From an uncultured Candidatus Micrarchaeota archaeon (lineage in GTDB: Archaea; Micrarchaeota; Micrarchaeia; Micrarchaeales; Micrarchaeaceae), in assembly GCA_963741095.1 (NCBI GenBank), contig CAVUGN010000005.1:64001-128000 (forward strand): a stretch of 64,000 bases of DNA, in the 5' to 3' direction. Each line of letters starts with the position of its first letter. Position 1 is the first letter of the stretch. The position numbers were made by a program, and so were the translations under genes. The notes beneath the pieces are model-generated. The model searched no databases. It saw only the letters and a list, made by a program, of their open reading frames with translations, and was not told the DNA's origin. Positions 5,737-27,466 of this stretch are shown here, one piece after another.

Positions 5737-5737
5737 C

Positions 5738-8124: not shown

Positions 8125-8172
8125 CAGGGATAACTTCCAAGTAAGAATTTAAATAATGTTGCAAGCGGCGGA

Positions 8173-8715: not shown

Positions 8716-8833
8716 CGCGGACTGGGCTCTCGTGAGCCTGGTGTCGGATGTCTGGTCGAGCTTGGCACCGGCATCGCATGCGCAAACTTTATGGGTTCTG
8801 ATAACATCACTGAATCTTCATACCCGTATCGCT

Positions 8834-11800
8834 TCAATCCTTGATCAGACTGTCCCCGGTGCCGGTTATGCTCTGGCTCGCTATGGTCGTATCGTGATAG
8901 TAGAGAGTGTTGTAGCTGCCGGTCATCTTCAGGTTTATGGTGCCTCCTATTGTGTGGAGGGTGTCGTAGCTTCCGGTCACGGTGAGGGCCATTGGCTTCG
9001 AAGTGAGCATGTTCAATGTCAGATCCACGTAGCTTCCAGTGAGCTGCAACGAATTGAGGGCCATGACCTGCACGCTCTCGACCAGGTTGGAGCTGCCGGT
9101 TATCGTGAACGCATTGCCGTTGATTGTCGCGCCGGATATCGTGTCCATGCTTCCCGTTATTGTCTGCGCCGAGAGTATGGTGTTGTGCATTGTTGTCGTG
9201 CCGTAGCTGCCGGTTTCCGTCAGGGTTATGGTGCCGTTGTAGATGTTTACATTGTCCACGCTCCCGGTCACCTGCACTGCGATGTTGCAGTTGCTGCCCG
9301 GCATGTTGATTGTTATGGTGTCGTGGCTCCCCGTGACGATCACTGCGCTTTGATCGGTCACTTGGACCGTACTGGTCAGATAGCTTCCGGTTATGCTGAT
9401 CGGTTTTCCGCTGTTGGAATTCGTGCAACCCTTCACTGGCGGCTGCGTGACCGTTATCACCGGTGTCGTTGCAGATGCTTTTTGACCGATCGAGTCGGTT
9501 GCGGTCACGGCGAATTGGCAGTTCGTTGACGTTGCGGACGGAGTGTACGAGAAGGACGCAGCGCTCGCCGAAACGAATCCAGGGCATGAATCTCCGGCTG
9601 GGACCGCCCACGAGTAGGACACTGCTCCAGTGCCGTTTGAAGCGATTGCAGTCACTGTCACCGGCACACCGACGTTAACTGATGTAGCAGAGGTGGGGGC
9701 CGATATTGATACGGTCAGTTGTTTGTTGATGGTTATCGTCGGAGTCGTAGCGGTTGCCTTTTTACCGAATGAGTCGGTCACAGTCACGGTGAATTGGCAA
9801 TTTACCGGTGCCGGTGCCTGATGGCAGTCTGGCATTGCTCCAGATTGGGTTGTTTGGGATGAAGTTGTTCCGGATGGAGTGTATGAAAAGGATGCTGTGT
9901 TTGCAGAAGTGAATCCTGGGCATGACGCTCCAGTTGAAACGGCCCACGAGTAGGACAATGGTGCTGTACCGCCTGATGCGCTTGCAGCCACAGTTATCGG
10001 CAGCCCTACATCTGCAGATGTTGCAGATGGAGGAGCGGTGATCACTACTGTCGGTAATGGATTGACCGTTATCGCATTGGTCGTAGCCGTGCCCATGCCC
10101 CCGACCGCATCTTTGACCGTCACGGTGAATTCGCAGGTTGATGTCGTACCCGATGGAGTGTAGGTAAACGACTTTGTTGTTGTGCTACTTTCAGTTCCTG
10201 GGCAGGCATGCCCAGCTGCAACCGACCATGAGTATGTTGATGTACCAGTGCCGCCCCCCACCGTGTTTGCGCTGATCGTGATCGGTACCCCGATGTCTGT
10301 CGGATTTGGCAGTACGGATGATATTGATACAGTTGGTTGTGGATTGACCGTTATCGTGGCGATGTTGGACTGTCCGGTGCCTCCGACAGAGTCGGTCACC
10401 GTTTCCTGCACCGTGTAGGTGCCGGATGTTGAGAAGGTCACTTTGTTGTTGTTTCCGAGAGTGCCCCCTGACAGCGTGTATGAATATGTGTACCCCGGCG
10501 TTCCCTGGGTCGTTGTGTTGCTGAATGCCACTGACTGTCCCGCATCGATAGTCTGTGATGTGGGCAGGATTGATATTGTCGGCAATGGATTGACCGTTAT
10601 CGTGGCGATGTTGGACTGTCCGGTGCCTCCGACAGAGTCGGTCACCGTTTCCTGCACCGTGTAGGTGCCGGATGTTGAGAAGGTCACTTTGTTGTTGTTT
10701 CCGAGAGTGCCCCCTGACAGCGTGTATGAATATGTGTACCCCGGCGTTCCCTGGGTCGTTGTGTTGCTGAATGCCACTGACTGTCCCGCATCGATAGTCT
10801 GTGATGTGGGCAGGATTGATATTGTCGGCAATGGATTGACCGTTATCGTGGCGATGTTGGACTGTCCGGTGCCTCCGACAGAGTCGGTCACCGTTTCCTG
10901 CACCGTGTAGGTGCCGGATGTTGAGAAGGTCACTTTGTTGTTGTTTCCGAGAGTGCCCCCTGACAGCGTGTATGAATATGTGTACCCCGGCGTTCCCTGG
11001 GTCGTTGTGTTGCTGAATGCCACTGACTGTCCCGCATCGATAGTCTGTGATGTGGGCAGGATTGATATTGTCGGCAATGGATTGACCGTTATCGTGGCGA
11101 TGTTGGACTGTCCGGTGCCTCCGACAGAGTCGGTCACCGTTTCCTGCACCGTGTAGGTGCCGGATGTTGAGAAGGTCACTTTGTTGTTGTTTCCGAGAGT
11201 GCCCCCTGACAGCGTGTATGAATATGTGTACCCCGGCGTTCCCTGGGTCGTTGTGTTGCTGAATGCCACTGACTGTCCCGCATCGATAGTCTGTGATGTG
11301 GGAGTTATCGAGATTGTCGGAGGCGTGGCCGTTAAGGGAAGCACGGTTATTGAGACGCTGTTGGACAGGGAAGCCTGGTTTTCATCCGTCAAAGTCTCAA
11401 TTAGGTCGTAGGTACCCGGACTTGTGAAAGTGAAGTCATTGTTTTGGGTGTACACGACTCCGTTTTGGGGTATAGTCATGTAAGAAAATGAGTAGGGCGT
11501 CAGGCCCGGGAAATTGATTGATCCGTTTACGGTGCTGTTGTATATGTGCACACCGCTCCCGACGTACACGGTGTACGATGAGGAGGTGATGGAGAACGCA
11601 AGGGCTGGATCTACTGCGATGTATGTCACAGTGCCTCCGGAATTTCCACTGCCGTCGGTTACGGCCAAATTTATCGTATCGGGAGAGGCAGTGTCTGAGC
11701 TATTGCCGAAAAATATTACGTTGCATGAGTTACCTGCAAAGGGGATTGTACCGACTTTGAAGTTGGTGTATGACCACAGACAATTGTAATTCCCGTCCCC

Positions 11801-11962
11801 GCCAGTTATGATGGTGGTGAGCAAGCTGTTTTGCCCGGCGGTCATCGAAGTTCTTTGTGATGTTAAAGTCACTCCGAGGCTGGCCTGTGCTAATGCCGGG
11901 GATAATGCTACAAACAGCAACGATGCCATGATAGAGATTGCCCACTTGTTCATGAAACTCAC
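8834..11962 (-). CDS. Large secreted surface protein with tandem PKD/Ig-like repeats and C-terminal beta-solenoid-like (xTGS) repeats
   Basis: Signal peptide; 82-aa Thr-rich repeats (GTPGYTYSY...GTYTVQETVTDS); periodic TGS motif at C-terminus. Confidence 0.85.
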   Translation of the reverse strand: MSFMNKWAISIMASLLFVALSPALAQASLGVTLTSQRTSMTAGQNSLLTTIITGGDGNYNCLWSYTNFKVGTIPFAGNSCNVIFFGNSSDTASPDTINLAVTDGSGNSGGTVTYIAVDPALAFSITSSSYTVYVGSGVHIYNSTVNGSINFPGLTPYSFSYMTIPQNGVVYTQNNDFTFTSPGTYDLIETLTDENQASLSNSVSITVLPLTATPPTISITPTSQTIDAGQSVAFSNTTTQGTPGYTYSYTLSGGTLGNNNKVTFSTSGTYTVQETVTDSVGGTGQSNIATITVNPLPTISILPTSQTIDAGQSVAFSNTTTQGTPGYTYSYTLSGGTLGNNNKVTFSTSGTYTVQETVTDSVGGTGQSNIATITVNPLPTISILPTSQTIDAGQSVAFSNTTTQGTPGYTYSYTLSGGTLGNNNKVTFSTSGTYTVQETVTDSVGGTGQSNIATITVNPLPTISILPTSQTIDAGQSVAFSNTTTQGTPGYTYSYTLSGGTLGNNNKVTFSTSGTYTVQETVTDSVGGTGQSNIATITVNPQPTVSISSVLPNPTDIGVPITISANTVGGGTGTSTYSWSVAAGHACPGTESSTTTKSFTYTPSGTTSTCEFTVTVKDAVGGMGTATTNAITVNPLPTVVITAPPSATSADVGLPITVAASASGGTAPLSYSWAVSTGASCPGFTSANTASFSYTPSGTTSSQTTQSGAMPDCHQAPAPVNCQFTVTVTDSFGKKATATTPTITINKQLTVSISAPTSATSVNVGVPVTVTAIASNGTGAVSYSWAVPAGDSCPGFVSASAASFSYTPSATSTNCQFAVTATDSIGQKASATTPVITVTQPPVKGCTNSNSGKPISITGSYLTSTVQVTDQSAVIVTGSHDTITINMPGSNCNIAVQVTGSVDNVNIYNGTITLTETGSYGTTTMHNTILSAQTITGSMDTISGATINGNAFTITGSSNLVESVQVMALNSLQLTGSYVDLTLNMLTSKPMALTVTGSYDTLHTIGGTINLKMTGSYNTLYYHDTTIASQSITGTGDSLIKD
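10340..11302. repeat. Perfect 246-bp intragenic tandem repeat, ~3.9 copies
   Basis: ggattgaccgttatcgtggcg at 10341, 10587, 10833, 11079; identical shadow ORFs in ORF track. Confidence 0.95.
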
Positions 11963-12160
11963 CCAATAACGTTACACTTTTGAAAGTTAATAATGTTGTG
12001 GTGAGGTAACGAAACTCGTTTGGCTGGGGGCAAAAATGCTTGAAAACGGAGGCCAGAAGAACGCGTCGCCGCTCTAACATGTCTTTTTGTTCGGAGTTGG
12101 CGGCGATCGGCAACCGAAAGATAGAAATATTATACAAATCACACAATATCGTGTGATCGA

Positions 12161-12592
12161 ATGTCGAAAACAGCGTTGTATGCCGAAGCAAAACTGCCGG
12201 TGCCGATTGGCAGGCCGCAGCATGCCACAGTGGACGGCCAGGAGTACAAGGCCCTAAGATTTGCGGAAGGCAAAGGCCCGGATTTGACAAAAACAAAAGC
12301 CATAGCAAGAATCGAGGGAGACGCAATGCCCACGACAGAAGACCCGAGAGAGATAGGCATCGCGTTGCTGAAGCCGGGGGAGTGGTGCTTCATTATCAAT
12401 AAAAACCCGGATGAGATGCCCATGGTCGCTGTGCTAGATTCCAAGGGTTACGTGTATTATGACGTTTATGATTACATCAAGCCCAACGGCGCCGCTCCCG
12501 TGGTGATTCTGAAGGAGACAGGCAACTCGACGAAGCCGCAAAGCCATCTGCTGCGCGAGGGCGATAGTTTGCAGAACCATCTGCGAAACTAG
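12161..12592 (+). CDS. Hypothetical protein
   Basis: 143-aa ORF with host-like codon usage; no recognised motif. Confidence 0.6.
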   Translation: MSKTALYAEAKLPVPIGRPQHATVDGQEYKALRFAEGKGPDLTKTKAIARIEGDAMPTTEDPREIGIALLKPGEWCFIINKNPDEMPMVAVLDSKGYVYYDVYDYIKPNGAAPVVILKETGNSTKPQSHLLREGDSLQNHLRN

Positions 12593-12801
12593 AAACGCCC
12601 TAATCTCGAGAAGTTTCTAAGGAGCAGGATCAGGGATAAAGGCAGGTTGGAATGATTAAGCCAGGAGAGGGCTCTACCACCCGAGCATACCCTTTTGTTT
12701 GGGTAAGTCATGGTATCACTGCTTATCATGTTCCTTTAAATTTAAATAATCGTTGATTGTTTGCCCCACAATCGAAGCGATAAACTATTTATAGACATTT
12801 T

Positions 12802-14514
12802 TTAATTCCGCCTAAAGTTTTTAAAAACCGGATATACGGTTTCTTTTTCATTAATTTCTTTTATCACTTTATAATACGCATGCATAAATTCTTTATCGAG
12901 TCTTCTTTTTATCGACTCCCTTCTTGTTAATTTATCAATTTTATTGTGTATCATTCGTTTATTCTCGTTTATGCGTTTGGTCCATAAATTTGCTATTCTT
13001 TTATCGCCGTCTTTTATTTTATCCATACTTATTTCCCAAGACATGAAGTATTTGAGGTATTTGGCTGTCCATTGTAATATATCGCTTTCAACAGGATGAA
13101 ATATGGGTGCATTTTTGTTTATTCTTAGTGGCCAGTTGTTTATGCCTAAAGTTTTTAGAGTTTTAAAAGGTACGCTTAGCAATAGTAGCGCGGATATGTC
13201 AGTTCCAGGCATAGTTTTGCCACTTATCTCTTTATGGGATATATCCTCCCACCTAATTATTATGCCTCCGCCGTTATGAACAATACATCTCTGTTGCAAG
13301 CGCTTCAAACCTAAAAATGTGGAATTATGGATTGAATGCCATCTTGATACTGCTCTCCTAGAATCCACCATATAGCATGAGATTGCTTTGTTATTTTCTG
13401 AGGCAATTAGAATATTCAGATTTGATTGGAATATAGAAGTTTTCAATTTTATTCTATTATCTAGTTCGTCGTCCCATGTAGAGAAATAGGAGTTTTTTAG
13501 ATTTATTTTGTCTCTTTCCATTAATAGATTAAGATAATTTTTACATATATTTATACTATCCGAATTTGTAGCTACACATTTTTTGGGTGACTCTATGATG
13601 ATTACATTGTAATTTTGTGAGGGTCTTGTATCTGGAAAATTAACAAGTATTTTATCCATAGTGTCGTCAGTATTATTTACAAATATAGTAACATTGAAAA
13701 ATAATCTTTGTGATTTCTTCATCTCTTGGACTAAGAATTTTATGGACTTGACTATCGTTTCCGATGAATTTTTACAGGGTAGTATTATATTTATGAGCGG
13801 CTTGTTATTAGGGGGTTTCACAGATTTTATGCTAAAGACCTTATAATTTTTACCGTATATACGCAATTTTTTAATATTACGGTTATCGATTCCAAAATAA
13901 TCGTTACTTTTCGGATTTTTCGTTCGGTCCTGATGTTTATAATGTATTATTTCCTTTAGAAGGTCGTTTTTCAGGTTCGTGAAATAATTATGCACATATC
14001 TATCGCCCTTATTTCTTTTTGCTTCATCTATTATATTTTCGTCCATTTCACTTATTGCTTTATTCATATAATTTAATAGGACTTTTTTTGTATCTGACCA
14101 GGAGAAACTATTAGAATATTTGCTTATGCCAACATAATAAGAATCCGCGTTTTTATTTCTGCATATATCTATCCTTTCTTTTGCGTATCTTGACATGTGT
14201 TTAGGTAATAGGTCATAAGTAAAAAAATCTGTATTGGCGACCTCTTTATCTGGTTTCTTTTTGATAGCACCCCCAACAATCTTTATATTGTATATATGTG
14301 CAGTCCCATATCCTGAGGTAAATATGTTACCGAGATAATTCGTCACTTCGCCTTTAAATCCAGTCTCTTCCTCGAGTTCTCGTAGGGCGGCCTTTTTAGG
14401 TGATTCTCCTTTTTTGACTTCCCCTCCGGGAAGGTGCCAGTTCTTCGCGCCATAATTATGTTTCACAAGTAAAATTTTGCCATTGACATTTACATACCCA
14501 AACGCGGAAGTCAT
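12802..14514 (-). CDS. NUDIX hydrolase fused to GT-A-like (glycosyl/nucleotidyltransferase) domain
   Basis: Nudix box GGEVKKGESPKKAALRELEEETG; INIILPCKNS and WDDE GT2-like motifs; start taken at MTSAFG. Confidence 0.7.
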   Translation of the reverse strand: MTSAFGYVNVNGKILLVKHNYGAKNWHLPGGEVKKGESPKKAALRELEEETGFKGEVTNYLGNIFTSGYGTAHIYNIKIVGGAIKKKPDKEVANTDFFTYDLLPKHMSRYAKERIDICRNKNADSYYVGISKYSNSFSWSDTKKVLLNYMNKAISEMDENIIDEAKRNKGDRYVHNYFTNLKNDLLKEIIHYKHQDRTKNPKSNDYFGIDNRNIKKLRIYGKNYKVFSIKSVKPPNNKPLINIILPCKNSSETIVKSIKFLVQEMKKSQRLFFNVTIFVNNTDDTMDKILVNFPDTRPSQNYNVIIIESPKKCVATNSDSINICKNYLNLLMERDKINLKNSYFSTWDDELDNRIKLKTSIFQSNLNILIASENNKAISCYMVDSRRAVSRWHSIHNSTFLGLKRLQQRCIVHNGGGIIIRWEDISHKEISGKTMPGTDISALLLLSVPFKTLKTLGINNWPLRINKNAPIFHPVESDILQWTAKYLKYFMSWEISMDKIKDGDKRIANLWTKRINENKRMIHNKIDKLTRRESIKRRLDKEFMHAYYKVIKEINEKETVYPVFKNFRRN

Positions 14515-14606
14515 TTTATCCCTTTTACACTGTGATATCAGAATAGCAACGCTTTTAATAAAGCTTCGCAAGCTAATGATAAAAAAGGTATGTTTACTTA
14601 TTTATA

Positions 14607-15308
14607 ATGTATTTATTGAACAAATCGCAGGAGGAGGATACGAAACGTGATTACAAGCTTGCAATATTTGATGTTGATGGTACATTATATAGATTACCTT
14701 CTGGTGCCACTAAATTTAGGGACACAGAAATGTATAATGAAGTACGGAATAGAGCTATAGGATTTCTCTCCAAACGGCTTTCTATTGGGAAAGATGAAGC
14801 AGAGGATACTTGGAATTGTATATATCACAAGTACAATGGCCACATAGATAGTGGTATCGAAAAAGACTATAATATCTCTAGGATCGAATACCTTTCAGAA
14901 GCATGGAACATATCTGCAGATAAGTATCTAAAACCGGACCCCGATATACGGAAGTTGTTGATTTCATTGAACATCCATAAAGCTATTTTATCATCTGCGC
15001 CAAAAGTTTGGGTGCACAGCGTTCTCAAGGCTATAGATTTAGGGGGTATTTTTGAATTTATCGTTACAGGGGATGAAAACGGAAGAAAGCCAGAGCGTAT
15101 GGCATATACTAGGGTATTGAGATATTTTAATGTGAAGCCAGAACAAGCGGTAATGATAGATGATGATATAGGGTATCTTAAAGGCGCCAAAGCGGTAGGT
15201 ATAGATACTACCTTTTTGATTAGTAATAAAGGTGTAGATACTAAGAATTCCAGCTTCGCTACTCATAGTATATCAAATCTTTTAGAATTGAGGAATTTCT
15301 TCGAGTAA
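14607..15308 (+). CDS. HAD-superfamily phosphatase (pyrimidine 5'-nucleotidase-like)
   Basis: FDVDGTLY, LSS, KP, MIDD motifs. Confidence 0.9.
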   Translation: MYLLNKSQEEDTKRDYKLAIFDVDGTLYRLPSGATKFRDTEMYNEVRNRAIGFLSKRLSIGKDEAEDTWNCIYHKYNGHIDSGIEKDYNISRIEYLSEAWNISADKYLKPDPDIRKLLISLNIHKAILSSAPKVWVHSVLKAIDLGGIFEFIVTGDENGRKPERMAYTRVLRYFNVKPEQAVMIDDDIGYLKGAKAVGIDTTFLISNKGVDTKNSSFATHSISNLLELRNFFE

Positions 15309-16345
15309 AAGTCGCTGTTCTGAGAGAAGAGTTTAGAAGTAAATCTTTTTGCGTTAGGAAGGAATTGCGCATACCTCATCTGATGCTCGCTTAATAATTT
15401 TGTTGTAACTTTTATGCACCCTGTAATCAAATTTTTACCGCTAGGATCATTATTGCCCAGTGCAGTGCTTTCATAGCTATATTTTGTAAACCACTTTAGT
15501 ATATTGACTGGGAGATTGCTGCCCATATCTTTTTTTGAAACTCAGTTTTCTATAAAGTTTTGGATGTACATTGAACCGTCATCTAATTTTATGCTGTTTT
15601 GAGGCACACTTTTCCCCATTTTTGATCCTAAGATGCCTTGTAGCAGATTGCAGTAGGTGAAGCTTATTAAATTTTTGAATCCTCTTTTTTTTATGATTTC
15701 ATAGACAAGCTTTGCATGACTTATTTCGTCGATACCAAGTGTGACAAGTATGCCGTCATATTTGAATGATTCCGGGTATATTATATCGGCAGCCATTGCA
15801 AGAGAGGAGATGATCTCGCCTTTGTTTAGTTTTCTACCGTATAAACCTTCAAATTTTGATTTATTAATGAAGGAAGCTAAATTTAATGCAATTTTTAATG
15901 TTTGTATATTCCTACTTTGTAAGTATATTTTTGAATTTCTGATGTTCACTCCAGCTGCCATCAAATGCGCTATTAATTTCGGTGTTATCTCCCTTATGTC
16001 TTTGTCTGATTTGTTTCTTACGCAAGTTGCTTCTATATCTGCTATTGGTATGAATAATTCGGCGTTGTAGATTTTTTGATAATACGCCATCTGCTGTAAG
16101 ATACATAAAGTGCCAAGATGTGGTATCCCGCTCGGCATAAATCCGCTAACAAGAGAAACCCTTTTACCGTTAGAGGCTAATTCTAGCCATCCGTCAAAGT
16201 TGTTATGTCCTATGATTAGACCTCTTTTTGAGAAATTAGGTCTTTCCTTAAGATCGAAGTTGAATGGATTTATCTTTAGCTTAGCACGCATTCTGGCGTA
16301 TTGTAGGTTATCCACTTTTGGTACACTCCATGCGTCGAACTCCAT
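15263..16345 (-). pseudogene. Divergent TrpRS-like protein interrupted by one in-frame TGA (15542-15544)
   Basis: SGFMPSGIPHLGT, MAADI, KMGKS motifs; ORF 15263-15526 continues in the same frame after the TGA. Confidence 0.7.
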
Positions 16346-16361
16346 TGTTTAACCTGATGAG

Positions 16362-17333
16362 TTATTTGCAATCAAATATAATCTTTCCATATTTCTGTTT
16401 AAGCATTACATCCAATGCTCTGTCAGAATCCTTAAGATAAAAACGATGTGTTATTATTCGGCCTAAAATCTTTTGTTTTTTCAAAGCAAGCTGGATTGCC
16501 CAATCAAAATCTTTTGGGGTGTAGCCTAGTTGCGTATAGATACTTGCTTCCTTGTTGATAACTCCACTTATGTCTACCGTAAATTTATTTATCATGCATG
16601 CACTTTCGAGTATTACACCATTGGGCTTTACATACCTTGATGCGTCAGCATAAGATTCTGGACTCCCACCTGCATCATAAACAAAATCAAATCGATCTAT
16701 TAGTTTTTCATTATTCGCCCCTTTTTCATAGAATTTGTCTATTACACTTCCAAGAAGTGATGCCTGTTCCTTATGCCCCACCATCGATATCCTTCCGGGA
16801 TTTTTGCTACTGGCATGTATCGCTCCAACAAGTCCTATCGCTCCAGATCCTATTATCAATAGTTCTTTGCCCTCCAAGTCCAAATTATGTAATGGTTTTG
16901 TGCTGGCTATTGTTTCGACCAGTACAGCCGTTCTTGTTTTTAGAGCATCAGGAACTTTTACCAGAATTGTTCCCTTAGGGATTATTGAATGTGTTGCCCA
17001 ACCACCAGCATACCTATTTTTTGTTGTTAAGCCAAACACTTGATTTTGTATGCAAGCATTATACCTTCCATTTTTGCAATTTACACACTTATTGCAGGGT
17101 ATTATTGCGGGCCATATGTAACGTTCTCCATCTAATTCCCCAACGCACTCGTGACCTAATACTCGTGGAAGGTTTATCCCTTTTACATCTCCTTTTATAA
17201 TATGTTTATCGGTTCCACAAACTCCACAAAAGAGCATTTTAATTAGTTCTTCATTCTTACTTTTAATTGATTTATAGTTCACTTTATTCCTGCCTTCCAC
17301 CAATAAAGCCCCCCATTCATTCAAGGATAGCAC
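16362..17333 (-). CDS. Zn-dependent medium-chain alcohol dehydrogenase (sugar/polyol type)
   Basis: CGVCGTD, GHE, CxxCxxC-x7-C, GSGAIG. Confidence 0.9.
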   Translation of the reverse strand: MLSLNEWGALLVEGRNKVNYKSIKSKNEELIKMLFCGVCGTDKHIIKGDVKGINLPRVLGHECVGELDGERYIWPAIIPCNKCVNCKNGRYNACIQNQVFGLTTKNRYAGGWATHSIIPKGTILVKVPDALKTRTAVLVETIASTKPLHNLDLEGKELLIIGSGAIGLVGAIHASSKNPGRISMVGHKEQASLLGSVIDKFYEKGANNEKLIDRFDFVYDAGGSPESYADASRYVKPNGVILESACMINKFTVDISGVINKEASIYTQLGYTPKDFDWAIQLALKKQKILGRIITHRFYLKDSDRALDVMLKQKYGKIIFDCK

Positions 17334-18464
17334 CTAACATATCCCCATCTTTTCTACAATGTTTACAATGTCTACTCCATCATTTTTCATTAATATTTCA
17401 TCTATGTCTTTTGGTTTGACTTTAGCATAGCGCGCAGCAAGTTTGTCGACCTTATCTAAAACTTTTTCTAGCAGCAGCTTCTTCATATCTCCGCTCAGAA
17501 TCTCACCTTTCTTGTACGTTTCGTATAGTTTTTTGCTCTCTTGCTCTTCCAAGAAGTAATATTTCAGGTAGATGTAAGCGACATCATTTTCTGGTATCCC
17601 TCCATACTTTTTGTGTTCTTCGATACTGGTCCTCCCTCCGCTAAAAGCTTTCATTACCTTCTTCATAATTTCGCTTCTGTTTTCAAGGAGGAATATGGCA
17701 TTGTTTTTTGATTTTGACATTTTTGATCCGTCTATTCCGGGAAGGAATTTATTGTGAAGAACTGCAGGGGGGTTGTATCCATATTTGGCCGCGACGTCTC
17801 TGCAGACTCTTAAGTGTGCATCTTCATCAGGTCCGATTGGAACCAGTACATTCTTAATCCCAAGTGTTTGAGGGAATAATACGTGTGCCGCTTGTACCGA
17901 AGGATAGAAATGGAGGCCCACACTCTCGCTATTTTTATAGTCGTATACTGCATTTATTGTAGAAAGAGTTATGCCCTTAGAGAGCTTTATTGCAAAATTG
18001 TAAATATTGGTATATATTTGGTCTATTATTACCTTCGTCTTGTCTTTGTCAAATCCGTACGCTACTAGACTTTTTGTTAGTATCAAAGCATTTTTCAATG
18101 CTTCCTCCTGTGTCGCTACCTTCCTTGTTACATAGCTCTCATCGTCGGATATTGGTATAAATGTTTCGACTCCGTGTGTCTTCTGAAAGTTCTGTATTGT
18201 ATCAAATATGCCCATATGCCCTATGTGGAGAGTTCCGCTGGGATTTAAGCCCGATACGATTGCACTTTTTTCCCCTTTCAATAATCTACCGTAAAATTTA
18301 TCGAAATCCCTATGAGAGTAGAGTAAGCCATTCTTGAAAGCCTTGAATTCGGGTACTTTATCTAAATCTTTTACTCTAAGAGCGCCAAATTGTCGTACTA
18401 GTTTTTCCGTTTCGATTTCCAATAAATCGATAAGGTACTTTTTGTCATTGGTATCTTCTTCCAT
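17334..18464 (-). CDS. trpS: Tryptophanyl-tRNA synthetase (archaeal type), island-encoded
   Basis: SHRDFD, GLNPSGTLHIGH, KMSKS, AFSGGR, GDMKK motifs. Confidence 0.88.
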   Translation of the reverse strand: MEEDTNDKKYLIDLLEIETEKLVRQFGALRVKDLDKVPEFKAFKNGLLYSHRDFDKFYGRLLKGEKSAIVSGLNPSGTLHIGHMGIFDTIQNFQKTHGVETFIPISDDESYVTRKVATQEEALKNALILTKSLVAYGFDKDKTKVIIDQIYTNIYNFAIKLSKGITLSTINAVYDYKNSESVGLHFYPSVQAAHVLFPQTLGIKNVLVPIGPDEDAHLRVCRDVAAKYGYNPPAVLHNKFLPGIDGSKMSKSKNNAIFLLENRSEIMKKVMKAFSGGRTSIEEHKKYGGIPENDVAYIYLKYYFLEEQESKKLYETYKKGEILSGDMKKLLLEKVLDKVDKLAARYAKVKPKDIDEILMKNDGVDIVNIVEKMGIC

Positions 18465-18579
18465 CTCTCTCAGCTCTTATTAAATCTTAATACGCCCAAA
18501 TTTTGGGCACTGATTATCTATTGTAGCGCTAGCTCCTTAAATCTAATGTTTTGTTAGATTTTGTTTATACACTTGACAT

Positions 18580-19419
18580 TTAATTAATCCTTTTACCTAT
18601 TATAAAACCTATCCTGCTTCTCAATTTTGTTTTATAAGGTTTGGTGAAATTTACTTCGAAACCAGAACTTTCGAGTTTTTTTAATAATGGGATATAACCA
18701 TAATGGTATTCGATGAGTATCCCTTTAAATTTCCTTAAGGTCTCTGTAGTTTCGTAAATCAAGTTATATTCGCACCCTTCGCAATCCATTTTAAGCAGCC
18801 CGTCTTTTATTTTAAATTTCTCTACGATGGTCTTAAGGGTGTTTATTTTAATTTGCTTACCTTTTTCAGATTCGATGATGGTATCGCTCGCACTGCTCTT
18901 ATAGTAAGGATCTATTTTTATATAACAATCTATTCTACCATATCCCTCATTTAATAACGTAATCTTTTTTAATAAGTTATTTGTTTTCAGGTTCTTCAGG
19001 GCCACAGAATATGTGTATGGATAGGGCTCAAACGCGTATACATGTTTTGCGGAAGACATTGCAAAATAAATGGCTGAATCCCCGATATTTGCTCCAATAT
19101 CGATTACCGAAGCGTTACGTAAGCGTATTTTAGAGTAGTTTTGCATAATAAATTGTTCATAGATCATAGCTAACGTATTGGATATGAGTTTACTTTTTCC
19201 GCCATGATAAAATTTAAGCACTCTGTTTTTAAAACGAAATTCGGTGTATAGATTGTTTATTTTTATTTTTGATTGTCCTTTCCTAGTTTGGATTAATATT
19301 TGATTTTCTAGTTTAGTACTAATCGATAAAATTTCTTCTGAGAATTTAGAGATAACTTCTAAAAACGGCGTAATTTTCGAATCCTCTTTGGCGGTTATGG
19401 TAAAACCTAGTTTTTCCAT
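18580..19419 (-). CDS. FkbM-family methyltransferase
   Basis: IDIGANIGDS, AFEP, KMDCEGCE, IEYH. Confidence 0.9.
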   Translation of the reverse strand: MEKLGFTITAKEDSKITPFLEVISKFSEEILSISTKLENQILIQTRKGQSKIKINNLYTEFRFKNRVLKFYHGGKSKLISNTLAMIYEQFIMQNYSKIRLRNASVIDIGANIGDSAIYFAMSSAKHVYAFEPYPYTYSVALKNLKTNNLLKKITLLNEGYGRIDCYIKIDPYYKSSASDTIIESEKGKQIKINTLKTIVEKFKIKDGLLKMDCEGCEYNLIYETTETLRKFKGILIEYHYGYIPLLKKLESSGFEVNFTKPYKTKLRSRIGFIIGKRIN

Positions 19420-19511
19420 ACCTAATTGTTTTAATGTTCTACCTTTTATTTGAGATTTTTGTATATGATCATCCGGTATGGCAAAGGCGATCTCAACACA
19501 AATTTATGACT

Positions 19512-20636
19512 TTATCTATTTGCCTTTATATGTAAGAATGGAATATTAATCTCATCACGCGAAAGACCGCCGTGCTCCGCCTTCCAATTCCATCCATGTG
19601 AAGGGAAACTGGGCTTAGTAGCGATTGCGACTATGTCACCAATCTCGTCAAAATGTGATGGGTCAAATCCGAATAACTTTTTAAGTTCTTTATCAGTTCT
19701 TCTAAATACAACACCGGATGAGCCAACTTGTTTTTTAATATCCAAAAAAGCTGCATCTGATTTACTGTATATGTAACGTGCTCTTCCGACACCGCCAGCT
19801 TCACAATAGATAAGATTTTTGATCTTTTCTAAATTTAGCTTCTTTGTATTTTTCTGGTCTATCTGTCCATGATCCGAAACAAAGAGGTAATCATAGCTTG
19901 GATTTTTATTTATGATTTCCGAGATAAGGATGGAGCTCATTTCGAGTAATTTTTGGGTTTTATTATTTTTAACTCCGAATATATGCATTATTTCATCAAA
20001 ATCAACGAAAACGCATAAAACAGAGGGACCCTCTTCTTCTATTAGATTTTCCGCCTTTCTGAAAAGTTCTCTTAGTTCTTCCTTATAATTACGATTATCT
20101 TCAGGTCCGATAAGGGGTATCTTTATACGTAAAGATTCCCCGAGAATTTCATCCCACAAAGACGAGCTTAACCATGGTAGAGCAAGACTCAAGAAGACGG
20201 GGTCTGATTTCGAGTACTCTAAGAACGAATGAATCTTGCCACTTTTTTTATATCGTTTGTTTTTTATTTTTTGGCCGTTCAGGCCAGTAACTCGGTCACT
20301 CATTAGACTAAACAATCCTTTATCTTTGCGGGAATAGAATGCAGTTCCCAATAGTTTATGTTTATCGGGTTTCACGCCAAAAAATATAGAGGGGTATGCG
20401 GTGTATGTCCCAGTAGGGAAGTTGCTATTAAAACATTTTAGATTGCGGAGGTTTATCCTATTATTAAAATGCTTTTTAAATTCGAAATAATTGAGGGAAT
20501 CAAATAAGAAGATGACCTTTTTGGTATCTTTCACCATTTGGCTTTTTAGATACCGACCAATTACATCTGGGGTTTTTTTAGAGTTCGGCACTTCCAATCC
20601 AGAATTGATATTCTTTATTGATTCTCTCTTTACCAT
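19512..20636 (-). CDS. Alkaline-phosphatase-superfamily nucleotide pyrophosphatase/phosphodiesterase
   Basis: FLFDSL, FPTGT, DEIMH, SDHGQ, HGGLS motifs. Confidence 0.85.
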   Translation of the reverse strand: MVKRESIKNINSGLEVPNSKKTPDVIGRYLKSQMVKDTKKVIFLFDSLNYFEFKKHFNNRINLRNLKCFNSNFPTGTYTAYPSIFFGVKPDKHKLLGTAFYSRKDKGLFSLMSDRVTGLNGQKIKNKRYKKSGKIHSFLEYSKSDPVFLSLALPWLSSSLWDEILGESLRIKIPLIGPEDNRNYKEELRELFRKAENLIEEEGPSVLCVFVDFDEIMHIFGVKNNKTQKLLEMSSILISEIINKNPSYDYLFVSDHGQIDQKNTKKLNLEKIKNLIYCEAGGVGRARYIYSKSDAAFLDIKKQVGSSGVVFRRTDKELKKLFGFDPSHFDEIGDIVAIATKPSFPSHGWNWKAEHGGLSRDEINIPFLHIKANR

Positions 20637-21015
20637 ATTAATGATTTGGGGGGTAGTAATTTATATCCGACTCCAGTTTTCCCACCATGTGGGTCAAAAT
20701 TTTCTAGGGAATCTGCTTTAGGGTCATTCTTCAATTATCAAGACCAAAGTATACTTGGCGGCTTCCAATTGGCACTGGATGGACCGTTGCGCTATATCAA
20801 TTTTCAAATCGGAACGCGTACATAAAATTTAGCATGGAGGTATACGGGACCGTCGAAAAGACAACGGCAGCATGCAAATCACGAAGGGCTAAAGAATGGG
20901 GCTATTGGTGAAGGAATGACTGCCGGTATAGTTAGAGGCATATTTGTAGCATGATTCAAAGGGAGAAGGAGATGATTACAGGCAATTCGAATTGTTTGTG
21001 ATGCACTTAGCGGCG

Positions 21016-21870
21016 TTACAACTTTGATGCCCTTTTGGGGTGGAGCGGTTCACTTTTTTCGTTTACTTCTTTTACCACTTTTAGGAGGGAGTTATAGACC
21101 CTGAGTTTAGTAGTTTCGAAGATTAGAGCATTCAAATCTTTCGGCAAACAGCTTCCTCCAAACGGACCTCTGCTCGGATCTAGATGGCTCGAACCAATCC
21201 GCCTATCCAAACCAACTATTTTCATTACACAAATAGGGTCCACATGCATTCGTCTGCATATTACGCCCATCTGATTGGCGAAAGAGACTTTTGTTGCTAA
21301 AAACGAATTGGATGCATATTTTGCAAGTTCTGCGGTATTGGGATCTACTACAATTACGTGTTTTGTGAATCCTTTGTATAAATTGCACAATTTTTTAATC
21401 GCTTTAGTGTCATACCCACCTATAACTATCCTATCTGGATGTAAGAAGTCTTTATATGAATTACTAGCTGTTAAAAACTCTGGATTAAACAGTACTTCAA
21501 CATTTGTAGTTCTCGCTTGCACCATTCTAATTAATTTGTCAGTAGTTCCAACCATAATTGTGGACTTAACTACTATTATCGTCCTTCGCTTACATACGGC
21601 GGCAATTTCCCGAATCATTTTGTAGACTATACTAGAATTGTTGCTACCGTCACGATTTTGGGTGGTTGGTACGCACACAAATATAATTTCGGAGTTATCA
21701 ACTAACTTCTCAAGCTTGTTGTATACCGTATATCCTTTTGTTTTAGCATTCTTAAACGCTACGCATGAGATATCGTATACGCATATGGTATGGCCTAGTT
21801 TTCCAAACCCATTGGCTACTGCTGAGCCAACATAACCAAATCCAACTATCCCAAGGCGCATCGTATTCAA
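21016..21870 (-). CDS. UDP-glucose/GDP-mannose dehydrogenase family (short, lacks C-terminal domain)
   Basis: GFGYVG, VCVPT, KST, NPEFL, FGGSCLPKD. Confidence 0.88.
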   Translation of the reverse strand: MNTMRLGIVGFGYVGSAVANGFGKLGHTICVYDISCVAFKNAKTKGYTVYNKLEKLVDNSEIIFVCVPTTQNRDGSNNSSIVYKMIREIAAVCKRRTIIVVKSTIMVGTTDKLIRMVQARTTNVEVLFNPEFLTASNSYKDFLHPDRIVIGGYDTKAIKKLCNLYKGFTKHVIVVDPNTAELAKYASNSFLATKVSFANQMGVICRRMHVDPICVMKIVGLDRRIGSSHLDPSRGPFGGSCLPKDLNALIFETTKLRVYNSLLKVVKEVNEKSEPLHPKRASKL

Positions 21871-21921
21871 CTCATTTATCTATATATAGGGCGGACATTG
21901 GATGGTAAGCTGGAGTAGTCG

Positions 21922-22013
21922 AGCCAGGAGAGGGATTTTCGTGTTGATATTAACATATCGAACCCCCCTGTGTCGCTCTGCAGGCGACCGCATAGCCTAT
22001 CTGCCATCCTGGC
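21922..22013 (-). tRNA. tRNA-Cys(GCA) with 21-nt T-loop intron (21936-21956)
   Basis: Acceptor GCCAGGA/TCCTGGC-T; anticodon arm GTCGC-CTGCAGA-GCGAC; BHB splicing restores GGGGG-TTCGATT-CCCTC. Confidence 0.9.
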
Positions 22014-22077
22014 CCGTTGCGATTTCTCACTGATGTTATTTATAGTTTCTCTTTTATTATCTTCACGAGGTGAACCA

Positions 22078-23214
22078 ATGGCACTGAACAGGATACCCGA
22101 CGAACTGATATCGAAGACGCTTACGTTTGACTACAAGACGCCGATAACGAAAGTCATACCGGAACTTGTGAAGCACCCGGCCGTGGTCGTGTACAAGAAC
22201 AAGAGCTATCTCGGCATAATAGACTCGAGAACTTTCTACAGGTCCGGCCAGAACCTGAGGCTCGGGAAGACCGAAACGCTTGAGAAGTTCATCACCAAGG
22301 TGCCCCGCATAACCGAGAGCACCTCGGTCGAGGATCTCGTTTATTATTTCTACAGAGCGAGAGTGAAGGCCCTGCCTTATTCCGACGGCAAGAGGATCAT
22401 CGGCGTCCTTGACAGGACGACGCTGCTCAAGATGATGCTCTCCATGGGCATGCTGAAGGACATACAGGTGAGGGAGGCTATGACCACGCCGGTCCTCGCG
22501 ATAGGCAACGACGCGAGCATAACGCAGGCGAAGGCGACGATGCGCGACCAGAAGGTCAACAGGCTGGTTGTACTCGACAACGGCAGGCTCGCAGGCCTGA
22601 TAACCAATCATGACATAGTCCAGGGTTACACTAAAATAGAGGACAGATTGCCGGAGAGGAGCAGCAGGAACTACGGAGCCTCGAACGTCACGGTCAGCGA
22701 CATGATGGAGCGCAACCCGAGGCGCATCGACTACGACAAGAGCCTTACCGACGCGGTGAGGGAGCTGATAGAGAATAACATCTCATCCATTCTTGTGCTG
22801 AGGAAGGGCAGCCCCGCAGGCATGCTAACGGTGATGGACGTCCTCGAAAGCGTCATAGCGAAGAGGAGGATAGAGGAGAGAAGGATATTCATATCCGGGC
22901 TCGACGCGGATTCCTATCAGTACAGCGACGAGATAAACGAGGAGCTGAAAAGCCTGATAGAGAAGGCCGAGAAGATGAACGGCGTGAAGGTCGATTACGT
23001 GACCTTCAGGGTCAAGAAGGTTGGAAACAAATCCTATGAGGTGCAGGTAAGGCTGTCCATAGGGAACAAGGGGATAATCAGCCTGCACACCACCGAACCG
23101 AACTTTGAGGAATCGATGAGGGAGGTCATGGAGAGGCTGAGGAAGATGCTGATAAAGGAGAAGGAGATGATGCAGACTTCAAGGAAGATAAACTTGTACA
23201 GGGAAGCGGAATGA
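22078..23214 (+). CDS. Four-CBS-domain protein with C-terminal HPF/RaiA-like domain (putative ribosome hibernation factor)
   Basis: Two CBS pairs; C-terminal beta-alpha-beta-beta-beta-alpha pattern; GGTGA RBS before ATG 22078. Confidence 0.7.
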   Translation: MALNRIPDELISKTLTFDYKTPITKVIPELVKHPAVVVYKNKSYLGIIDSRTFYRSGQNLRLGKTETLEKFITKVPRITESTSVEDLVYYFYRARVKALPYSDGKRIIGVLDRTTLLKMMLSMGMLKDIQVREAMTTPVLAIGNDASITQAKATMRDQKVNRLVVLDNGRLAGLITNHDIVQGYTKIEDRLPERSSRNYGASNVTVSDMMERNPRRIDYDKSLTDAVRELIENNISSILVLRKGSPAGMLTVMDVLESVIAKRRIEERRIFISGLDADSYQYSDEINEELKSLIEKAEKMNGVKVDYVTFRVKKVGNKSYEVQVRLSIGNKGIISLHTTEPNFEESMREVMERLRKMLIKEKEMMQTSRKINLYREAE

Positions 23215-23693
23215 GCAGCTATCCGAGGAAGAGCAACAACAAGAAGGCGCAGTCGAGCCTGGAACTACTGATAACGCTCTCCTTCGGGCTCATTGTGCTG
23301 CTTCCGATAGTGGCGCTCGCATTCATACAGATGGCGAGCTCCACCTCCACGCTCTCGACGGCCGAGGCGCAAGAAGCAGCCACTAAGCTCGCAAGCATCG
23401 CAACTGCGGTCGGATCACAGGGTTATCCGGCGAAGCAGCTCGTCTTAATCCAGGTTCCGCCGAACATAAACAACATATTCGTCGGTAACACGATGGGCGG
23501 GATAGGCCACGAGATCGTCTTCCTCGTGACAACGAACGCGGGTCCCAGCTACGTGACGGCATACACACCGCTCAACGTCAGCGGATACCTGCAGAACATA
23601 GCGCAGACCGGCACTTACCTTGTCAACGTCAGCGCGCAGAACTCCTGCCCCTCGGTGCCTTCGTCGCCGTGCGTTTATATAAAATCCACGTAA
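23211..23693 (+). CDS. Class III signal peptide (pilin-like) protein
   Basis: KKAQSSLELLI followed by hydrophobic helix. Confidence 0.8.
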   Translation: MSSYPRKSNNKKAQSSLELLITLSFGLIVLLPIVALAFIQMASSTSTLSTAEAQEAATKLASIATAVGSQGYPAKQLVLIQVPPNINNIFVGNTMGGIGHEIVFLVTTNAGPSYVTAYTPLNVSGYLQNIAQTGTYLVNVSAQNSCPSVPSSPCVYIKST

Positions 23694-23718
23694 GGACTCT
23701 TATCCTCAAAAAAGTTTG

Positions 23719-24363
23719 TTATTGGATTCTCAATAGGTAGGTGTTCCTGTAGAGCTTCTTTCCACCCTTTATCGTGGCGAGCGTCGCCGAGAGCTTCGAC
23801 TTCAGCCGCTTCGCCTTCAGGAATTCTGCCGTGAGCTTCTTGTCGCTGACGTAGATGTCGAAGCCGTTCGTCACCTGCTCCGACTTCGCTATGAAGGCGC
23901 CGTTCTTCGCTATGTAGTCGAAGAGCTTCTCCGCGATCTTGTCCGCCTTCACGACGTCGCCGCGCAGCTGGACCAGGGCTTCGTAATAACCTGAGCTTAT
24001 CTTGTAGCAGCGCGGGCATATCTGCTTTATCGGCCGCACGTCCATGGTGGTGTTGAACTTCGCGATCTCGCCGTTCACGTCGCATTCGTACTCGATATCG
24101 ATCTTGTTCTTCAAGAAGCCGGTGACCTTTGCGGTGCAGTCGCGCACGTGGGCGACCGAATTCACCAGCTCGCTCAGCGCCACGTTACCGAGGGGCTTGT
24201 ACTGGCCCTTGACCCTTATGTTGCCGCAGCGCCCGCACCGGTACATGTCGACCGAATTCGCTATCGTGCCGCGTATCTTGTCGGCTGTGCAGAACTCGCA
24301 GATCTCGCCGATGAACTTCACCTCGTCGGAGGACCTGTTGCATATAGGGCAGCGTATTGTCAT
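23719..24363 (-). CDS. nmd3: NMD3-family ribosome biogenesis protein
   Basis: Four CxxC pairs, YYEALVQLRG, GFDIY. Confidence 0.85.
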   Translation of the reverse strand: MTIRCPICNRSSDEVKFIGEICEFCTADKIRGTIANSVDMYRCGRCGNIRVKGQYKPLGNVALSELVNSVAHVRDCTAKVTGFLKNKIDIEYECDVNGEIAKFNTTMDVRPIKQICPRCYKISSGYYEALVQLRGDVVKADKIAEKLFDYIAKNGAFIAKSEQVTNGFDIYVSDKKLTAEFLKAKRLKSKLSATLATIKGGKKLYRNTYLLRIQ

Positions 24364-24381
24364 TCAAATCAGGCTGAGAGA

Positions 24382-27095: not shown

Positions 27096-27190
27096 CAAAA
27101 CCAGTGATATTGATAAGGTCAAGAAAATATAAAAAGGAGTGATGAAAAGGCGTTTTCAGCCCTTTCACCAGCTTCTTCAAACTGAAAAGA

Positions 27191-27466
27191 TTATGCGTGC
27201 TTCTTCATCAGCTTCAGGTGCAGCGAGAGCACGAAGCCGTACACTATCACGAACAGTGCCAGCAGCACCATCGCCCAGCCGAAGAATGACATAATGTCAG
27301 CGACGGTCGGGAATGCGGTGAGCAGCAGCACGCCGAGTATGAAGACGAATATGCCCCAGTACACTGCGCGGTACACTTCCCACCCGCTCTGCTTCTCCCT
27401 GAAAAGCGCGTGCTTTTCGATCTGCATCGTCGGGTCAATTGCTATCGTAACTTTCCGTTCAGCCAT
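27191..27466 (-). CDS. Small two-TM membrane protein
   Basis: Two hydrophobic helices; upstream AT-rich promoter-like tract. Confidence 0.65.
   Translation of the reverse strand: MAERKVTIAIDPTMQIEKHALFREKQSGWEVYRAVYWGIFVFILGVLLLTAFPTVADIMSFFGWAMVLLALFVIVYGFVLSLHLKLMKKHA

Follow-up and report, generated by a model that had tools for sequence, protein, structure and literature searches.

A mobile gene unit combining a tryptophanyl-tRNA synthetase, a divergent synthetase-like protein and a zinc dehydrogenase in DPANN archaea

Self-resistance copies of aminoacyl-tRNA synthetases (aaRSs) are described in antibiotic gene clusters, including an indolmycin-resistant tryptophanyl-tRNA synthetase (TrpRS), the mupirocin IleRS and the albomycin SerRS (PMC9437257, PMC5388404). 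Clusters of TrpRS-A together with TrpRS-A-like and ORF1 genes are known from DPANN archaea and from bacteria of the candidate phyla radiation (CPR) (Mukai et al. 2017, PMC5370408), and in Deinococcus TrpRS II works with nitric-oxide synthase and is reported to keep aminoacylation activity (PMC9437257). Here we analyzed a 64-kb stretch of DNA from an uncultured Micrarchaeota archaeon, a DPANN archaeon with a 1.08-Mb genome (contig CAVUGN010000005.1, positions 64,001 to 128,000; hereafter, the window). The window contains an AT-rich island in which adjoining genes encode a full-length TrpRS, a zinc-dependent medium-chain dehydrogenase of the alcohol dehydrogenase type (Zn-ADH) and a divergent TrpRS-like protein that we call family C. 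An earlier reading of the sequence alone, referred to below as the original prediction, had taken the whole island for a candidate biosynthetic cluster for an aaRS inhibitor, with the TrpRS-like gene as a ligase and the intact TrpRS as a self-resistance gene.

The locus resembles the self-resistance clusters in that a second TrpRS, about 30% identical to the housekeeping enzyme in those clusters and 33% identical here, lies beside tailoring-type enzymes on horizontally acquired DNA, with the native copy encoded elsewhere. It differs from them in its host, a DPANN archaeon, in having no recognized scaffold-forming enzyme, and in its extra TrpRS, whose type is the sole TrpRS found in some relatives and whose slot is filled by three different TrpRS clades. 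The system of Mukai et al. also features clustered extra TrpRS-type genes that coexist with a canonical TrpRS in DPANN genomes, some Trp-free proteins and cross-domain transfer (PMC5370408). That system, however, comes with neighboring tRNA-Trp(A73) genes and with an 'ORF1' that belongs to no known family, whereas a tRNA-Trp gene was found in 0 of 22 module loci and not in the window. Conversely, the Zn-ADH that is constant in our loci and the methyltransferase that is often present are not mentioned in PMC5370408, where 'TrpRS-A-like' could be compared with family C by description only. Deinococcus TrpRS II offers a parallel of another kind, namely an auxiliary TrpRS paralog that acts with a redox enzyme on Trp chemistry alongside a normal TrpRS; here the partner is a Zn-ADH that is encoded adjacently, and family C has lost the α-amino-binding Gln. 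Full-text literature searches returned no earlier description of a TrpRS-ADH module, and the work of Mukai et al. 2017, again compared by description, was the nearest.

A conserved unit on a mobile island

We scanned genome and metagenome collections with a family C profile and obtained 25 loci with a true member (L022-L030 and L102-L117). Several of these are near-duplicates, and by the tree they represent about 8-10 independent lineages. A Zn-ADH homolog (46-68% identical) adjoined family C in 23 of the 25 loci, usually with overlapping stop and start codons, and a TrpRS-type gene stood beside this pair in 23 as well. The misses were cut contigs in each case, those for Zn-ADH ending at or just after family C. 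The three enzymes joined in the original prediction do, therefore, co-occur elsewhere. Besides TrpRS-type and ADH genes, the only family conserved in more than two loci was a methyltransferase of about 300 aa dependent on S-adenosylmethionine (SAM), encoded between TrpRS and family C in 12 loci; radical-SAM genes were present in three. The loci were labelled Micrarchaeota, Woesearchaeota and Pacearchaeota, plus one metagenome-assembled genome (MAG) labelled Methanosarcinales. At the level of gene order, these data show that TrpRS, family C and Zn-ADH form a conserved unit, one that is rare and mobile across DPANN archaea and at least one high-GC contig.

The rarity of the unit is apparent in both of its unusual components. 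Family C was found in three of 41 related genomes (the window's own, G000, together with G007 and G011), and in the same three among 401 genomes of the phylum. The full-length ADH subfamily occurred in exactly those three of the 41 and in four of the 401; in the fourth genome (G114), a second TrpRS of the island type (type B, see below) lies directly upstream of ADH, and the search for a family C gene was negative. Mean column identity in the ADH family is 73% (alignment A4), with more than 80 invariant columns across distant lineages. A homolog search with a word prefilter gave at least 11 ADH proteins among the matches listed, which is not a census. No relatives of family C were found in viral contigs, and anti-phage defense was rejected as a role, PADLOC having matched a generic NUDIX model only.

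The high-GC contig (L115, GC 0.66) carries the unit in a tightly overlapping operon encoding a radical SAM/SPASM protein, a 225-aa open reading frame (ORF), family C, ADH, a bacterial-type TrpRS (342 bits on trpS) and a PhyH-type dioxygenase. A gap of 0.9 kb separates this operon from downstream genes for a sugar-acid-dehydratase-like enzyme, a 2-oxoacid-decarboxylase-type enzyme dependent on thiamine diphosphate and an MsbA-type ABC exporter. A variant was seen in a low-GC island of G114 (L202, G114:C1:896000-912000, positions 3000-14300), where an Lrp-type regulator, a HisC-like aminotransferase and a B-type TrpRS with a degenerate HIGH motif (HIAQ) precede the second B-type TrpRS and ADH. 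This island further encodes a RibD-C-like reductase, a 250-aa mini class Ic ORF, two TrpD-like phosphoribosyltransferases (one of them scoring 198.3 bits, cut-off 199.05) and a DMT transporter; trpB was not found in G114. On a low-GC, DPANN-like contig (L105 5571-6515, also L106), an S66-family peptidase of the LD-carboxypeptidase type directly follows ADH. The S66 family includes the microcin C immunity enzyme MccF, and murein is expected to be lacking in an organism of this type.

In the window, the AT-rich island proper measures 9.25 kb (12672-21921). GC content is 0.34-0.40 at 12-22 kb against 0.52-0.57 on both flanks (about 0.54), in agreement with the original prediction. The longest non-tandem direct repeat of the region brackets this shift and contains a 13-nt, att-like core (Table 1), which has exactly two matches in the 64-kb window, with 0.01 expected and two or more found in 0 of 100 shuffles. 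A same-genus genome (G001) is colinear with window positions 5742-8164 and 21921-28359 at 78-86% nucleotide identity. At its empty junction, the colinear blocks are separated by about 60 nt with a single copy of the core, and the match to the window picks up again at 21921. Because the core flanks the island and occurs once at this empty site, the AT-rich island is an integrated insertion, with the composition, flanking repeats and empty site in a relative that characterize genomic islands. It is a recent one, whose site-specific integration postdates the separation of this species from its closest sampled relative. No integrase or recombinase family was matched among the island ORFs scanned with Pfam and NCBIfam.

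Beside the island, the segment 8165-12640 has native GC and is also absent from G001; it is probably a separate, hypervariable surface-protein segment. It encodes a 1042-aa PKD-domain surface protein with 246-nt tandem repeats (8834-11962, minus strand) and a 143-aa ORF without a family match. A second low-GC patch (0.40 at 34-36 kb) includes a gene for a 462-aa protein with an AsnC-type helix-turn-helix domain (33902-35290).

Table 1 Coordinates of island features and of the native TrpRS. Positions are those of the window unless a contig is given; genes were assigned with Pfam and NCBIfam models.
Feature	Position	Strand	Details
Left copy of 13-nt direct-repeat core, AGCCAGGAGAGGG, att-like	12659..12671	+	within 31-nt imperfect repeat 12641-12671
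NUDIX protein	12802-14571	-	589 aa; NUDIX domain at residues 27-124 (63 bits)
HAD-IA hydrolase	14607-15308	+	best model pyrimidine 5'-nucleotidase, under its cut-off
TrpRS-like family C gene	15263..16345	-	361 codons including terminal stop; HLGT and KMGKS; one in-frame TGA
In-frame TGA of family C gene	15542..15544 (given on + strand)	-	codon 268
Uninterrupted part of TrpRS-like ORF	15542-16345	-	class Ic synthetase-like
Zn-ADH	16362-17333	-	medium-chain dehydrogenase, distantly like L-threonine 3-dehydrogenase
TrpRS, clade B	17334-18464	-	full length; HIGH and KMSKS; zero Trp residues
FkbM-family methyltransferase	18580-19419	-	
Type I phosphodiesterase / nucleotide pyrophosphatase family protein	19512-20636	-	30.6 bits, cut-off 23
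NDP-sugar dehydrogenase, truncated	21016-21870	-	284 aa; N-terminal and central domains only
Right copy of 13-nt direct-repeat core	21922..21934	+	within repeat 21904-21934
Native type A TrpRS	G000:C5:178358-179473		same contig, 97 kb away

Family C, a diverged TrpRS duplicate

Database searches identified about 35 family C proteins of 316-360 aa and 38-65% identity, below which the scores dropped sharply to ordinary TrpRS. In an exhaustive profile search of 1.84 billion representatives, only about 11 exceeded 200 bits; these bear the family C signature, and the lower matches bear that of ordinary TrpRS. On the curated equivalog model TIGR00233 trpS (cut-off 176.75), the window ORF reached 90.6 bits and its closest homolog, the G007 ortholog P0003, 94.9; the island TrpRS reached 230. 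The nearest solved sequence to family C is the Aeropyrum pernix TrpRS (PDB 3A04/3A05) with 180 bits, the next best having 77. An AlphaFold2 (AF2) model of P0003 (pLDDT 82, pTM 0.86) aligned with 3A04 over 367 columns (TM 0.77/0.74), the C-terminal helical domain included. These comparisons show family C to be a diverged duplicate of a TrpRS, which according to the predicted structure has kept the whole TrpRS fold.

A quick maximum-likelihood tree of 59 sequences with a TyrRS outgroup resolved five TrpRS-type groups: the bacterial type and clades D (10 rows, support 100), C (17, support 99), A (11) and B (12). We compared their Trp-binding residues using the roles assigned in the P. horikoshii enzyme, in which the α-amino-binding Gln is Gln198 (Gln284 in human) (PMC2831299). 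Two invariant changes were specific to family C, the replacement of this Gln by Met and of the last His of HIGH by Ser or Thr (Table 2), and were seen in 16 of 16 family C rows against 0 of 33 in A, B and D together. Family C keeps the α-amino salt-bridging Glu, a KMSKS-type loop (KMGKS in 13 of 16, KMSKS in 3 of 16) and the indole-pocket residues common to clade B and 3A04. Judged from the alignment, this pattern fits a change of function better than decay and points to a substrate or chemistry that differs around the α-amino group. Two other indicators were dropped. Tyr77, Gln111 and Lys117 do not discriminate Trp specificity, being replaced in clade B and in the 3A04 alignment too, and the C-terminal/catalytic identity ratio, considered as a sign of lost tRNA binding, was 0.62 in both C and D (B, 0.73; A, 0.90).

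Table 2 Residues at Trp-binding positions (P. horikoshii numbering) and at the end of HIGH in four TrpRS-type groups.
Position	A (n=11)	B (n=12)	C (n=16)	D (n=10)
Tyr77 (indole)	Y 8/11	V 12/12	V 16/16	L 8, M 2
Gln111 (indole N)	Q 8, P 3	P 12/12	P 16/16	V 7, others 3
Glu116 (α-amino)	E 11/11	E 11/12	E 16/16	D 10/10
Lys117 (carbonyl)	K 11/11	S 12/12	A 16/16	A 9, G 1
Gln198 (α-amino)	Q 11/11	Q 12/12	M 16/16	Q 10/10
Last residue of HIGH	H 11/11	H 12/12	S 10, T 6	H 10/10

Among described TrpRS subtypes, 3A04/3A05 and NF008925 gave the best sequence and fold matches to family C. They have the 'GFMxSG' and 'A-D-I-L' motifs in common, as well as a non-canonical pocket without equivalents of Tyr77, Gln111 and Lys117. 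Unlike family C, 3A04 has Gln at the Gln198 position, with HFGH and Q-A-A-D-I-L in place of HxG[S/T] and M-A-A-D-I-L, and the C-terminal domain of family C is unaligned by sequence beyond profile position ~272. NF008925 was the best subtype model for clades C and D alike, matching D at full length and above the trpS cut-off, and C over the catalytic domain only. Several aaRS paralogs have non-translational ligase roles, among them MshC, GluQRS/YadB, PoxA/EpmA and the amino acid:carrier-protein ligases. As in these paralogs and in cyclodipeptide synthases, the synthetase scaffold appears to be reused in family C, with its signature motifs partly kept and its substrate site altered. Cyclodipeptide synthases are not known to carry HIGH and KMSKS. 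Family C differs from these proteins in retaining the full-length TrpRS architecture, including the C-terminal domain, which is absent from the cyclodipeptide synthase AlbC (PMC9437257). A prediction of the complex between family C and ADH scored 0.00, and we counted it neither for nor against binding. L105 contains a third TrpRS-type gene between clade D and family C (2353-3435; of intermediate score, 227 bits on NF008925, full length), with HFGS, QMGKS, Met at the Gln position and a [4Fe-4S]-type Cys motif; by these features it may be a transitional form of family C.

The divergent TrpRS-like gene with HLGT and KMGKS foreseen in the original prediction is present in the window, but an in-frame TGA stops its ORF in this assembly. 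The same frame stays open for 92 more codons to 15263, the tail aligns with the C-terminus of homologs, and P0003 has Trp exactly at the TGA position. We aligned Logan contigs from four soil runs of one study over positions 14600-18500 (3.9 kb). The only differences listed both hit the stop codon, one run (X3) having T>C at 15542 (TGG) and another (X1) A>G at 15544 (CGA). Each allele rests on one contig with a depth of 2-3, and the codon lies outside the coverage of the other two runs. TGA is carried by the window and by P0002, from a 9.3-kb contig of Logan source. Noise is an unlikely source of two sense-restoring differences in a single codon out of 3.9 kb, and from these contigs the stop codon appears to be polymorphic, with sense alleles coexisting in the population. 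A second interruption was seen in a Woesearchaeota MAG (L027 4915-5970), whose family C gene carries a single in-frame TAA at codon 113 instead of the consensus Lys of the family, and Val in place of the conserved α-amino-binding Glu.

Recoding of TGA as Trp was rejected: it would extend only the family C gene, and would also carry the reading frame past the terminal TGA of that gene into the HAD gene. TAA or TAG is the stop codon of the other island genes. Neither the window nor the 22 module loci gave a tRNA-Trp or suppressor tRNA gene. ARAGORN listed only 28 tRNAs for the genome, with none for Trp or Tyr, probably owing to introns or unusual structures, and its listing was not informative about a suppressor tRNA; it also called a 91-nt tRNA-like gene with a four-base anticodon loop (cgaa) at G000:C2:57224-57314.

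The interruptions raise the question of whether the island is decaying cargo, a horizontally acquired remnant without current function in which family C is a pseudogene and the gene association reflects co-transfer only. The truncated sugar dehydrogenase, the lack of an integrase gene among the annotated island ORFs and the clade-B pseudogenes and fragments in three relatives (described below) are consistent with such decay, as are the TGA here and the TAA in L027. We consider it very improbable all the same, given that the 92 codons after the stop are still in frame and alignable, that sense alleles were seen in X3 and X1, and that the C-specific substitutions are invariant. The column conservation of ADH across distant lineages and the adjacency kept across archaeal phyla and in a high-GC contig likewise speak against it.

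Native and mobile TrpRS copies

The genome of the window holds four class Ic genes, namely the two in the island, a TyrRS on contig C2 and a further TrpRS-type gene (type A), 33% identical to the island TrpRS. The two TrpRS paralogs of the original prediction are those of the island, and the separate housekeeping trpS whose absence would have spoken against a self-resistance copy does exist. We queried 40 relatives of the same genus, family and order with each full-length TrpRS type. Type A was 87% identical in the same-genus genome G001 and at least 55% identical in 27 of the 40 relatives, and another four had it at 40-51% identity. Six genomes that are 88-96% complete (G006, G010, G011, G020, G033 and G037) gave no type A gene, two further relatives gave no match, and one gave only a fragment. 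With a native GC of 0.52, type A is, on this distribution, the vertically inherited housekeeping trpS.

The island copy, type B, behaved differently. It was found at 50% identity or more in 10 of the 40 relatives, with a patchy distribution that includes exactly the six genomes without type A, where it is the sole TrpRS-type gene found. Clade B has the α-amino-binding Glu in 11 of 12 proteins and Gln in all 12, and 11 of the 12 contain no Trp residue, as against 12.5% of ORFs of similar length in this genome. Taken together, the sequence comparisons show clade B to be a complete, mobile TrpRS that was horizontally acquired here and can apparently serve as a cell's only TrpRS. In relatives that keep type A, we found a clade-B pseudogene with four stops (G009:C22:1548-2633), a fragment with stops (G018:C6:87580-87984) and a weaker, 42% fragment (G030:C19:25407-25889); these remnants suggest repeated gain and decay of a mobile clade-B TrpRS. 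The G007 island has a second clade-B TrpRS, 50% identical, on the opposite strand (L022 14323-15444).

The full TrpRS of the module belongs to clade B in Micrarchaeota-type loci, to clade D in Woesearchaeota/Pacearchaeota-type loci and to the bacterial type in L115; all clade D rows are module-adjacent. The branching of family C mirrors the tree of its partner TrpRS in (G000, G007) and in (L107, (L028, L029)). The module's full TrpRS is usually an extra copy in its genome. A separate type-A-like TrpRS, usually with TyrRS, is present in the module genomes G000, G007 and G042-G045, and was not found in G041 and G011. The Cys motif C-x22-C-x6-C-x2-C, reported for TrpRS-A2 (PMC5370408), occurs in two of the 10 clade-D proteins.

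These distributions bear on an explanation that needs no secondary metabolite, and that we regard as possible if doubtful. The module would be a translation kit for Trp scarcity or stress, made up of alternative TrpRS isoforms in archaea that are unable to make Trp. A Trp-free enzyme of clade B or D could be made when Trp-tRNA is scarce, family C would be a specialized isoform, a heterodimer partner or a tRNA-binding regulator, and ADH and the methyltransferase would salvage or detoxify host-derived Trp-related compounds. In keeping with this, trpB was found in none of the five module genomes (control matches in 14 of 14), and clade B is almost always Trp-free. The full fold predicted for family C, its C-terminal helical domain, as conserved as in clade D, and the NF008925 subtype that it shares with clade D are in line with it as well, and the second B-type TrpRS of G114 adjoins ADH where no family C gene was found. 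Mukai et al. 2017 favored 'tryptophan metabolism and encoding' for the extra TrpRS genes of DPANN archaea and CPR bacteria (PMC5370408). Zn-ADH, SAM methyltransferase, radical-SAM enzyme and dioxygenase, however, have no known role in aminoacylation, and the two invariant changes of family C hit residues for α-amino binding and ATP handling. A tRNA-Trp gene is also missing from the module loci (0 of 22), and the module has a rare and patchy occurrence (in 3 of the phylum's 401 genomes), though Trp auxotrophy is probably general in these lineages.

Accessory genes and possible function

Every gene named in the original prediction was found in the island with Pfam and NCBIfam models, and TrpRS indeed abuts the Zn-dehydrogenase, with no spacer between stop and start. 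Two assignments held in part. In the predicted NUDIX-glycosyltransferase (NUDIX-GT), the NUDIX domain is clear; the GT half was not confirmed, the C-terminal ~440 aa being possibly GT2-like by an ESM-Atlas lead alone (GT2 clusters, 0.93). The nucleoside diphosphate (NDP)-sugar dehydrogenase is present, but its C-terminal domain is missing, and each of the three frames is interrupted by stops in the next 380 nt downstream; the gene is probably a remnant. The HAD gene converges on the 3' end of the family C gene with a 46-nt overlap, and the same convergent overlap is seen in G007 (L022 11011-11667 and 9908-11056).

Outside the window, the order phosphodiesterase-TrpRS-ADH-C-HAD-NUDIX was seen in a single further genus (G007), on another low-GC island whose flanks differ, so that the synteny of the full cassette with HAD and NUDIX holds there and in none of the other loci. 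A full-length homolog of the NUDIX protein (53% identity) and a homolog of the phosphodiesterase (66%) were found in G007 only among the 40 relatives, and NUDIX-589, HAD and phosphodiesterase are absent from the other 24 family C loci. These three genes are a lineage-specific extension common to G007 only. FkbM as a query gave no BLAST match in the 25 module loci or in G007. The sugar and nucleotide genes that the original prediction had placed in the pathway thus fall outside the conserved unit, FkbM occurring in this window only and the sugar dehydrogenase being probably a remnant. In the G007 island, genes for a Fic/DOC-family protein and a low-molecular-weight phosphatase lie just upstream of the phosphodiesterase (L022 4779-6624).

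These neighbors matter for two readings in which they take part. In the first, the whole island would be one cluster. NUDIX-GT, HAD, FkbM, phosphodiesterase and sugar dehydrogenase would build or trim a nucleotide or sugar, to which family C would ligate Trp or an analog; this would yield a TrpRS inhibitor of the aminoacyl-nucleotide type, with the intact TrpRS as its immunity gene. The conserved order in a different genus, in a differently flanked low-GC island, fits this narrower form of the small-molecule reading set out below, as do the three extra enzymes that by family act on nucleotides or phosphoesters, the TrpD-like phosphoribosyltransferases and ribosylamino reductase homolog of G114, and the S66 peptidase beside the module in L105. 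We nevertheless hold it to be rather unlikely, in view of the narrow distribution of NUDIX-GT, phosphodiesterase (both missing from 39 of 40 relatives) and HAD, the uniqueness of FkbM, the truncation of the sugar dehydrogenase and a GT assignment that comes from a language-model lead only. Moreover, one common transfer may account for the extension in both G000 and G007. The second reading, offered in the original prediction as an alternative, is that family C adds Trp to a cell-surface sugar polymer made by the neighboring sugar genes. The island does lie beside the PKD-domain surface protein gene and contains FkbM, a possible GT2 domain and a sugar dehydrogenase fragment. With no sugar gene in the conserved unit, a broken sugar dehydrogenase, no flippase or oligosaccharyltransferase in the island (Pfam/NCBIfam) and a PKD gene outside the att-like repeats, we find this extremely improbable.

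The reading that we prefer, and whose chances we put near even, is that the trio is a mobile small-molecule module acting on Trp or a derivative, and that it brings its own full TrpRS as protection or back-up. Its functional core would be the operon TrpRS(B)-ZnADH-TrpRS-like(C). Family C would no longer be an ordinary TrpRS and would activate Trp, or a Trp derivative altered near the α-amino group, with ATP; the threonine-dehydrogenase-like ADH would make or convert that Trp-derived compound, and the module of other lineages would also draw on a SAM methyltransferase, radical-SAM enzyme or dioxygenase. The full TrpRS would sustain Trp-tRNA charging during module activity, either as a product-insensitive enzyme (self-resistance) or as a Trp-free back-up. 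The module looks dispensable, and possibly costly, because family C is stopped by TGA here while sense alleles appear to coexist.

We favor this reading because variable tailoring genes surround a constant core, three TrpRS clades occupy one slot, and L115 presents the unit in an operon. An extra synthetase beside putative pathway genes, with a 33% identical housekeeping copy elsewhere, is the arrangement by which such clusters are recognized, and it is also found in G007 and G042-G045. For the biosynthetic aaRS-like enzyme and extra TrpRS of the original prediction, the invariant changes of family C, the three clades and the L115 operon are circumstantial support; the chemistry that was proposed stays conditional. 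For family C, ADH and the variable tailoring enzymes (methyltransferase, radical SAM, PhyH, NUDIX/HAD/phosphodiesterase), no counterpart among known pathways was identified.

Several observations weigh against a small-molecule module. The conserved unit comprises just two or three enzymes, none of them recognizable as scaffold-forming, and the accessory genes vary between lineages. No exporter was found in the window island with Pfam and NCBIfam, the exporter of L115 lies 0.9 kb and two genes off the core, and the transporter of G114 is a single case. Clade B is not a dedicated immunity protein, because it is the sole TrpRS found in six relatives, five of which have neither family C nor ADH. 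As for family C, deviant HIGH motifs exist in real TrpRS enzymes (TIGH/TLGH in clade A), and its C-terminal domain shows no greater relaxation relative to the catalytic domain than in clade D, so that tRNA binding may persist. Since C and D both match NF008925 best, the pair may also have begun as a tandem duplication with a translation role. Finally, family C is interrupted independently in the window and in L027, and the allele evidence consists of single low-depth Logan contigs from one study.

A further step, which we put forward tentatively and think improbable rather than probable, is that family C and ADH make a Trp-derived TrpRS inhibitor, possibly a tryptophanyl-adenylate mimic, against hosts or competitors. 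The co-transferred TrpRS would then be the immunity gene, and the stop/sense polymorphism would reflect producer and non-producer variants. Tiny symbiotic archaea are thought to be almost without secondary metabolism. If true, it would be the first description in archaea of an antibiotic system that targets aaRSs and includes self-resistance, and one mobile across archaeal phyla and into bacteria. Synthetase paralogs have repeatedly led to new chemistry, extra synthetase copies are a proven beacon for antibiotics, and family C is a rare, sharply defined TrpRS-derived family of small, soluble-looking proteins. If the module is a translation device, it would represent a new way to cope with tryptophan scarcity; if a TrpRS inhibitor is made, it would be a new source of aaRS-targeting compounds and would give a new view of the interaction between DPANN archaea and their hosts.

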